DNA of 45,044 bases from a virus (Duplodnaviria; Heunggongvirae; Uroviricota; Caudoviricetes): the IMG/VR virus record IMGVR_UViG_2718217859_000007. The stretch is one strand, 5' to 3'. The position numbers and the translations under genes are program-made. Positions 25,499 to 26,001 of this stretch are shown in pieces. The notes beneath the pieces were generated by a model. The model worked only from the letters and a program-made list of their open reading frames with translations. It had not been told where the DNA came from and did not search any database. Position 1 is the stretch's first letter, and each line of letters starts with the position of its first letter.

Positions 25499-25651
25499 TT
25501 ATTCAGATTTGCGCAGTAAAGGCCGGAGCACGACCAGCACCATCACCACCAGCACACCATCTGCCAGTACCGACATCAGCCGTCCGGTAAAATCCACCAC
25601 CACTACCAGAAACAGCAGGATGGCAGCCAACACAAGGCGCGCACTTTTCAC
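25499..25651 (-). CDS. small hydrophobic protein (50 aa), translationally coupled to upstream gene
   Basis: GTG start overlaps the upstream stop (GTGA); GGAG 8 nt upstream; product [50 protein letters not shown]; below ORF-track size cut-off. Confidence 0.3.
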
Positions 25652-26001
25652 AGGTACTGCTCCAGCGGCAACTGCAGCGCCTGAGCAATTTTCTTGAGCT
25701 GCGCTTCTTCATCCGGGCCAATGCCGTCCTGGTCTGCGATATCCAGACACAGGCACAGCACATTCACTGCATCATCAGTACCTGCAACATCAGCCAGCTG
25801 ACGAAGGGCTTCGGCATTGGCAGAACGCGGTGACGCTTCATAACGGGCGCGGATATTTGCACTCATTTGTGCAATCTCACCGGAGAACGGCGCAAAGGCA
25901 GGAAGTGCTGCAATGGTTTTCTCCAGCACTGCGATTTCTTTCGCGTCACAGGTGCCGTCAGCGTATGCAATGGAATACGCGCCCCAGACGGTCGCCTCCA
26001 C
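25648..26001 (-). CDS. hypothetical protein, TerB-like (tentative)
   Basis: 117 aa acidic protein with paired ADG...E / DQDG...EE helical motifs resembling TerB-type domains; assignment by recall only. Confidence 0.45.
   Translation of the reverse strand: MEATVWGAYSIAYADGTCDAKEIAVLEKTIAALPAFAPFSGEIAQMSANIRARYEASPRSANAEALRQLADVAGTDDAVNVLCLCLDIADQDGIGPDEEAQLKKIAQALQLPLEQYL

Follow-up and report, generated by a model that had tools for sequence, protein, structure and literature searches.

Which system do two small, overlapping genes just upstream of a phage holin gene belong to, and what might they do for the phage? The genes in question lie in the viral record IMGVR_UViG_2718217859_000007 (Caudoviricetes), a stretch of 45,044 nucleotides (nt) that we refer to as the window. 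A sequence-only reading had drawn attention to a 117-codon open reading frame (ORF) with a GTG start, its GTGA overlap with a 50-codon ORF that likewise starts with GTG, a GGAG motif 8 nt before this second GTG and the holin gene (PF04971, 25171-25386) that follows shortly after. All of these literal features are present on the minus strand of the window. We are practically certain that the locus is a copy of a mobile phage cassette, tciA-tciB of phage P1. The pair as such is already known, its annotation in P1 being about twenty years old and now automatic in genome pipelines. Apart from this identity, the sequence-only reading missed that tciA is present as a nonsense allele and that a conserved, structured leader precedes it, the latter being the most interesting thing at the locus.

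A copy of the P1 tciA-tciB pair

The 117-amino acid (aa) product of the first ORF (25648-26001; all window coordinates refer to the minus strand unless stated otherwise) matches the TerB family PF05099 over residues 8-114 of 117 (29.9 bits, cut-off 24.4, E=7.5e-7) as well as phrog_632, labelled 'tellurite resistance' (E=3.7e-51), and shares 87% identity with P1 TciA across these 117 aa. In Escherichia coli prophages, RefSeq/PGAP lists the pair under the names 'tellurite resistance TerB family protein' and 'DUF3927 family protein'. A profile of four TciA sequences matches the solved TerB structure 2JXU (E=8.8e-7), with profile positions 15-135 aligning with TerB residues 21-144, and the predicted all-helical fold of TciA agrees with the TerB-like structures 2H5N and 2OU3. 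The early guess of a TerB-type domain is thus borne out, with no unrelated fold emerging, and the paired ADG and DQDG motifs that had been noticed are the two conserved acidic DG...E motifs of the family. Comparison of 13 diverse sequences, classical TerB among them, showed E46 and E122 to be invariant and D39, D116 and G117 nearly so; the window ORF retains all five residues. Its product is indeed acidic (isoelectric point 4.2), and the Pfam scan of TciA returned no domain besides TerB. The AlphaFold2 (AF2) model has high confidence for the folded core (residues ~21-141) and the lowest for the first 20 residues. Intact TciA can be described as a predicted cytoplasmic, acidic TerB-fold protein of 141 aa. 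With TerB of the terZABCDEF tellurite, phage and colicin resistance cluster (Klebsiella, 2JXU), it shares the Pfam family, a comparable length and the DG...E motifs, but only ~16% sequence identity.

The second gene, tciB (25499-25651), encodes 50 aa from a GTG start. Although it had been described as unlisted, it belongs to established Pfam and PHROG families and is routinely annotated by PGAP: its product scores 49.2 bits against DUF3927 (PF13064; cut-off 25, E=5.1e-13) and matches phrog_1470, 'TciB-like', with E=1.9e-23. With Pfam scores above the cut-offs for both products, neither ORF has arisen by chance. DUF3927 was the sole family at E<=1, and no holin or antiholin match was obtained. 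The strong hydrophobicity of the protein had been correctly recognised (grand average of hydropathy 1.54); it has two hydrophobic segments and basic ends, and R5, D20, S27, D31 and P44 are invariant in 14 diverse members and retained by homologues down to ~30% identity. The ratio of nonsynonymous to synonymous substitution rates (dN/dS) is 0.37 for tciB, compared to 0.8-1.0 in the other two frames, and 0.06 for tciA; judged by this substitution pattern, tciB is a real, conserved gene under purifying selection. The exact TciB protein is encoded on 508 contigs. The DUF3927 family, whose members we sought by hidden Markov model and pattern searches, is small, with 172 clusters (50% identity) out of 1.84 billion representatives. 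One 140-aa protein (P0468) carries two tandem DUF3927 repeats, which hints at TciB forming a dimer or higher oligomer.

That the two genes belong together, as proposed from the window alone, is supported by their joint conservation across prophages. Both were present in 179 of 180 related loci from genome and viral collections, the exception being a rearrangement that cuts tciB; our first sample of loci was biased by our own search patterns. At the junction (25648-25663), the two genes share the 4 nt GTGA (25648-25651), made up of the tciB start GTG and the tciA stop TGA and preceded at a spacing of 8 nt by GGAG (25660-25663). This GTGA is found in 165 of the 179 loci, divergent loci having TAATG or TGATG instead, and GGAG or GGAA is kept, from which we infer that translation of tciB is coupled to termination of tciA. 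TerB also lies directly 5′ of DUF3927 in six further subfamilies (Pantoea, Klebsiella, a Pseudomonas-like prophage, Enterobacter, E. coli and an uncultured phage). The pair is moreover found in P7, a temperate relative of P1, and in virulent phages, for example SP-076 and SP-058 (N4-like phages of Salmonella), the Erwinia jumbo phage Asesino and Pseudomonas phage ZY21. In ZY21, tciB truly begins at a GTG located 5 nt beyond the stop codon of TerB. In Vibrio phage MS02, TerC adjoins TerB and there is no TciB.

In P1 (NC_005856; annotation by Lobocka et al. 2004), tciA and tciB abut or overlap on the same strand as they do in the window, and in both cases tRNA genes and a DNA methyltransferase gene lie upstream of tciA. 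The two TciB proteins share 44% identity and the same motifs, and the reciprocal matches of both window proteins to P1 TciA and TciB held up. Downstream, however, P1 tciB is followed by tciC, encoding a 35-aa single-span protein, whereas in the window a hairpin and then the holin gene follow; tciC is without counterpart there, and a tblastn search with P1 TciC found only two P1-type contexts. The P1 pair is located in the C1-controlled ban region and the window pair in a Q-dependent late operon, the conserved leader is found in the window but not in P1, and tciA of the window, unlike that of P1, is interrupted by a stop codon.

A mobile cassette with a candidate structured leader

How far does the conserved unit extend? 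Among ~110 of 125 distinct loci, homology is confined to window positions ~26235 to ~25425, while the flanks differ: only ~15 loci share the 180-aa ORF upstream and only 4-6 the holin downstream, and in 89 contexts the right border of homology falls at 25420-25429. On the strength of these alignments, leader, tciA, tciB and a terminator-like hairpin together are a mobile cassette. At its left edge, a terminator-like hairpin with a U-tract (26216-26237) ends the 180-aa ORF, and the sequence of this hairpin varies between loci with compensatory changes. At its other end, a two-tier hairpin with a U-tract (25448-25504; fold z=-3.2) begins with the stop codon of tciB; it is conserved together with the cassette and probably acts as a terminator or 3′ stabiliser. 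The lambdoid 'moron' cassettes such as stxAB are likewise discrete, with sharp borders and terminator-like hairpins, and lie between Q or tRNA genes and the lysis genes. In contrast to these, tciAB has no detected promoter of its own, a structured leader being found in that place, and its product is no known virulence factor.

This leader (26074-26206) is non-coding, ends in an AAAGGA Shine-Dalgarno sequence and abuts the tciA ATG. Over its ~135 nt, it shows 0.048 differences per site, as compared with 0.27 at fourfold-degenerate sites of tciA in the same 51 loci, making it ~5 times more conserved. The stretch from the upstream terminator to tciA yielded no sigma-70-like promoter. The leader also precedes tciA of the clade represented by phage JLK-2012, even though the two TciA clades share only ~41% protein identity, with a 20-nt core that is identical, and it is found upstream of terB in the Erwinia jumbo phage Asesino. 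When viral contigs were scanned for the 20-nt core, 114 instances with a readable downstream ORF were recovered; tciA of either clade follows in 110, and the ORF in the other four looks like a frameshifted tciA. More divergent copies of the leader precede genes for a KilAC-domain antirepressor, KilA-N and tail-tip-like proteins as well as one gene without assignment, with a Shine-Dalgarno sequence and then an ATG after every divergent copy examined. Copies outside the window were mapped in loci L182 (1094-1229), L047 (6097-6241), L005 (7710-7853), L019 (7451-7567) and L008 (6480-6604).

RNAalifold predicts three helices in the leader, including a long-range stem CGCYCGG/CYGRGCG. In the alignment, 94% of cells can pair, compared to 34-48% with the partners slid, and compensatory changes occur in 6 of 20 pairs. 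With a model-fitted alignment and independent hits, this number rises to 12 of 20 pairs and includes 6 of the 7 pairs of the CGCYCGG/CYGRGCG stem, yet such an alignment leans towards structure and the sequences are related. Covariance-model searching recovers the window copy at 26063-26206 (E=2.6e-41). The folding-energy z-score of the leader is only -1.9, so the case for structure rests on covariation rather than energy, and covariation support across these related sequences can be called good but not conclusive.

A coding function for the leader was considered in the form of a 34-aa upstream ORF (26042-26146) and rejected, because several loci carry 1-nt indels in it; databases show it only as frameshift fusions to TciA. 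Likewise, known small RNAs (sRNAs) were considered for the spacer between tciB and the holin gene, a 2026 preprint having described PasA and PasC as adjoining holin genes with TerB nearby. PasA, PasC and PasD2 of E. coli E2348/69 gave no significant match anywhere in the window.

Since the leader is conserved beyond the coding sequence, shows compensatory changes and has no match in Rfam at E<=1 (positions 25300-26320, permissive filters), it is a candidate for a new structured 5′ cis-regulatory RNA; a description of it was not found in the literature. With rather more doubt than confidence, we put forward that it represents an undescribed class of phage cis-regulatory RNA that, together with tciA-tciB, forms a minimal self-contained regulated unit of TerB and membrane partner. 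TerB is widespread, and a phage cassette that reduces it to two small genes offers a clean test system; the unit of leader and tciAB, if true, could make TerB function experimentally tractable.

A nonsense allele of tciA

Is the copy in the window functional? The 117-codon ORF had been taken for the gene itself. Its sequence is present as described, but alignment to the E. coli N96 protein WP_000466938.1 reveals that the gene is a frame of 141 codons (25648-26073) starting at ATG 26073, in which codon 22 is an in-frame TGA (26008-26010) in place of the Arg codon of relatives (CGC in strain N96). The 117-codon ORF is the TerB core 3′ of this nonsense codon. A complete TerB-family protein including the N-terminal MFGxFKKK...ENRD segment is not encoded, as the TGA splits off the first 21 codons. 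The segment lost in this way, whose conservation extends from E. coli prophages as far as Pseudomonas and Vibrio phages, includes the invariant residues E20, N21, R22 and D23, with K18-D23 being invariant among 100 close homologues.

Elsewhere, tciA is intact (141-143 aa) in 158 of the 179 related loci, and a TGA at codon 22 occurs in only one other (L100). The exact 117-aa product is found on 2 contigs only and similar 117-aa forms on a few tens, whereas intact forms are found on hundreds. The tciA gene of this window is very probably broken, and from the position of the TGA we regard it as probably a null or weak allele beside an intact tciB. The only routes to a product are read-through of the TGA or re-initiation at the GTG located 6 nt 3′ of it, the latter of which could, according to the structural model, give the whole folded core. 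UGA is a comparatively leaky stop codon.

Does this make the pair in the window a decaying, non-functional remnant? The chances seem to us evenly balanced, and an affirmative answer would be compatible with the overall explanation that we prefer. Decay is suggested by the nonsense codon and the rarity of the 117-aa allele, but also by the sequence around the 5′ end of tciA (25975-26085), which over its full length matches no complete E. coli genome at more than 91% identity, by the fragmentary methylase gene in the same late region and by other prophages in which tciA has suffered 5′ deletions or, in several loci, frameshifts at an A-rich stretch near its start. Set against these are the routes to a product described above and the intact state of tciB, the leader and both hairpins.

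A proposed membrane-tethered TerB module in lytic growth

What could the intact pair do? As a whole, we lean slightly towards an explanation that combines the tciA-tciB identity with a membrane-tethered TerB module acting in lytic growth. TciA and TciB would be made together from one message, and TciB, inserted in the inner membrane with its N- and C-termini both facing the cytoplasm, would serve as the membrane partner or anchor of TciA, as TerC does for TerB in ter operons. Other TerB-like domains are membrane-tethered, as in DjlA and DUF533. The role of TciB as an anchor is proposed because it would parallel these domains as well as the reported interaction of TerB with the membrane protein TerC (PMC11003894). 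Vibrio phage MS02, with TerC beside TerB, is a further precedent for such a membrane partner. On these grounds, a TciA-TciB membrane complex comes close to an even chance in our view, if not quite reaching it. During lytic growth, the complex would then condition the infected cell's cytoplasmic membrane or shield it, possibly against superinfecting phage, pore-forming colicins or a membrane potential that is lost too early; a specific protective role of this kind is doubtful. The setting is that of the lytic phase, as the pair is controlled by a C1 operator in the ban region of P1 and lies downstream of Q in lambdoid prophages, and its retention from temperate lambdoid to virulent N4-like and jumbo phages points to a phage-serving role in lytic growth.

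The inherited names imply something else, namely lysogenic conversion that renders the host resistant to tellurite or colicins. Homology to TerB of the ter operons and the matching annotation names agree with this, and so do low read counts from uninduced enteropathogenic E. coli (EPEC), in which a stand-alone tciB homologue reaches a base mean of 36.7 compared to ~3 for the holin (PMC8550237 supplement), although the highly expressed sRNA PasD2 adjoins it. However, the tellurite-resistance plasmid constructs in the ter-cluster paper contain terBCDEF or still more of the cluster (PMC11003894), and no terC-, terD- or terE-like gene lies among the neighbours examined, the 180-aa protein, Q, holin, lysozyme and Rz of the window having returned no TerC or TerD family match. 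The partner in the phage-borne cassette is instead the 50-aa DUF3927 protein, unlike in the ter cluster. A terminator stands upstream of the cassette, which is without a detected sigma-70-like promoter, and virulent phages carry the pair as well. We give this alternative very little credence and infer that tciAB is not a lysogenic-conversion tellurite-resistance gene.

A second alternative, raised from the sequence alone, is that of a lysis-timing accessory, in which TciA and TciB regulate the adjacent holin as an antiholin or a holin-gating sensor. It draws on the gene order, since the holin is the next gene in ~103 of 112 distinct lambdoid contexts, usually 50-150 nt away, and on the nature of the lysis genes in the window. 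Here, the P21-type holin (E=8.6e-36) is joined by a lysozyme whose N-terminus resembles a signal-arrest-release (SAR) segment, as in R of phage 21, and which would form a pinholin/SAR-endolysin system with it; such systems are sensitive to loss of membrane potential. Nevertheless, at least two unrelated holin types adjoin the pair (PF04971 in the window and Pantoea, Phage_holin_8 and Phage_holin_3_7 in Klebsiella and most E. coli contexts), some lambdoid phages have an esterase gene between the pair and the holin, and in P1/P7, N4-like, jumbo, Pseudomonas and Rac-like contexts the pair is far from the lysis genes. Holin adjacency is most simply explained by a shared accessory slot of lambdoid late operons, and we consider a role in lysis timing improbable.

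tciB without tciA

How well does a membrane-tethered TerB module withstand the remaining evidence? Several observations speak against it, among them tciB genes that stand alone. Prophage PP2 of EPEC E2348/69 contains a DUF3927 gene (E2348C_0687; 4459-4617 of locus L195, corresponding to NC_011601 740958-741116) with neither tciA nor a tciA remnant. This orphan (PF13064, E=3.4e-14) occupies the same Q-to-lysis slot as the pair in the window and is 44% identical to the TciB encoded there, but it has a TTG start that follows an 85-nt spacer and is not coupled. The product of the gene before this spacer, a membrane protein of 247 aa, shares 56% identity with a 239-aa membrane protein of the window, making a functional link between the latter and tciB possible on grounds of gene neighbourhood. 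PasD2, absent from the window, follows 41 nt after the orphan (Pas sRNA coordinates in E2348/69 were taken from the PMC8550237 supplement). Of 5426 complete E. coli genomes, 690 contain the orphan arrangement, which was found at 3123 places and represents an enterohaemorrhagic E. coli (EHEC)/EPEC lineage; window-like tciA-tciB sequences were found in 354 genomes at megablast sensitivity. A rule that DUF3927 always follows TerB, which holds in all paired subfamilies sampled, is disproved by this lineage.

To these orphans can be added ~11 sampled loci in which a tRNA-like sequence replaces the 5′ half of tciA (its first ~75 codons) and tciB is intact, the window itself with its intact tciB behind a broken tciA, and the fact that ~10% of prophage tciA copies are disrupted. 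The persistence of tciB without a working tciA means that TciB may act alone or that both genes may be dispensable passengers. For P1, tciA and tciB were named by homology only (PMC6799933, PMC9603915), a CRISPR interference screen found the tci genes to be non-essential and dispensable for plaque formation (PMC10695390), and the operon is missing in about half of one P1 subgroup (PMC9603915). Finally, no genuine TerB-DUF3927 fusion protein was found. In the AF2 prediction of one fused sequence (P0156), TciB formed a single long helix with a predicted local distance difference test score of ~70 and gave no usable contact information, the underlying alignment being partly mis-registered. This sequence and three other fusion candidates (P0447, P0529 and P0386) were rejected, as they occur on single contigs and look like frameshifts or mis-assemblies. 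The loci with the tRNA-like variant (L116-L124, L132 and L176) are IMG/VR prophage contigs, and their tciB has a different C-terminal tail.

The same orphans bear on the third alternative, a toxin-like or defence module as suggested by the sequence-only reading, in which TciB would be a depolarising membrane toxin and TciA its sensor or antidote in abortive infection. TciB is certainly short and very hydrophobic, with conserved intramembrane Asp residues, TerB domains have been tied to phage inhibition in ter operons (PMC7371120), and the pair occupies a cargo slot. An unneutralised toxin is hard to square, however, with thousands of orphan copies and with tciB being intact where tciA is broken or absent, and virulent phages carrying the pair would gain nothing by abortive infection. 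Constraint is far stronger on tciA than on tciB, unlike in typical antitoxins, neither protein matched any family of PADLOC-DB 2.0 at E<=1, and knock-down in P1 produced no phenotype (PMC10695390). We therefore consider a toxin or abortive-infection module to be highly improbable.

Gene order around the cassette

The late operon of a lambdoid prophage begins at the site of tciA-tciB, which is the slot held by stx in Stx phages. In the order of transcription, genes for DUF968 and RusA are followed by the Q antiterminator (28936-29757) and, directly after it, by the multi-span 239-aa membrane protein (27977-28696), which belongs to phrog_1521 and has no match to a Pfam family. Next come a DNA-methyltransferase fragment, tRNA-Thr and tRNA-Gly (together 27170-27677) and, as the last gene before tciA, the 180-aa ORF (26285-26827; phrog_5091, again without a Pfam family match). 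After tciA and tciB, the P21-type holin gene is directly followed by the phage lysozyme gene (24674-25171) and an Rz-type gene. In phage JLK-2012, tciA and tciB come after Q and tRNAs and are followed, in this order, by a small hypothetical ORF, an esterase gene, S, R and Rz.

Same-strand tRNA genes were found up to 3 kb upstream of tciA in 76 of 114 contexts, and dmt, tRNA-Asn and tRNA-Thr lie upstream in P1. The methylase and tRNA genes in P1 and the tRNA genes in these contexts suggest a larger methylase-tRNA-tciAB block that seems to be common to P1 and lambdoid phages. The 180-aa ORF, shared with few of the related loci as described above, is flanked by two terminator-like hairpins (26872-26889 and 26216-26237) and looks like a separate cassette.

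Two further observations concern regions of the window outside the late cassette. An Rfam scan of the whole window, in which only tRNAs and sok scored above the gathering cut-offs, returned the sok antitoxin RNA with 115 bits at 31787-31962 on the minus strand, pointing to a hok/sok-type module in the early region of the prophage. Between Rz and the gene for the terminase small subunit, a gene on the plus strand (23458-24075) encodes a 205-aa protein of the histidine-phosphatase superfamily with an N-terminal hydrophobic segment, which is probably another cargo gene.

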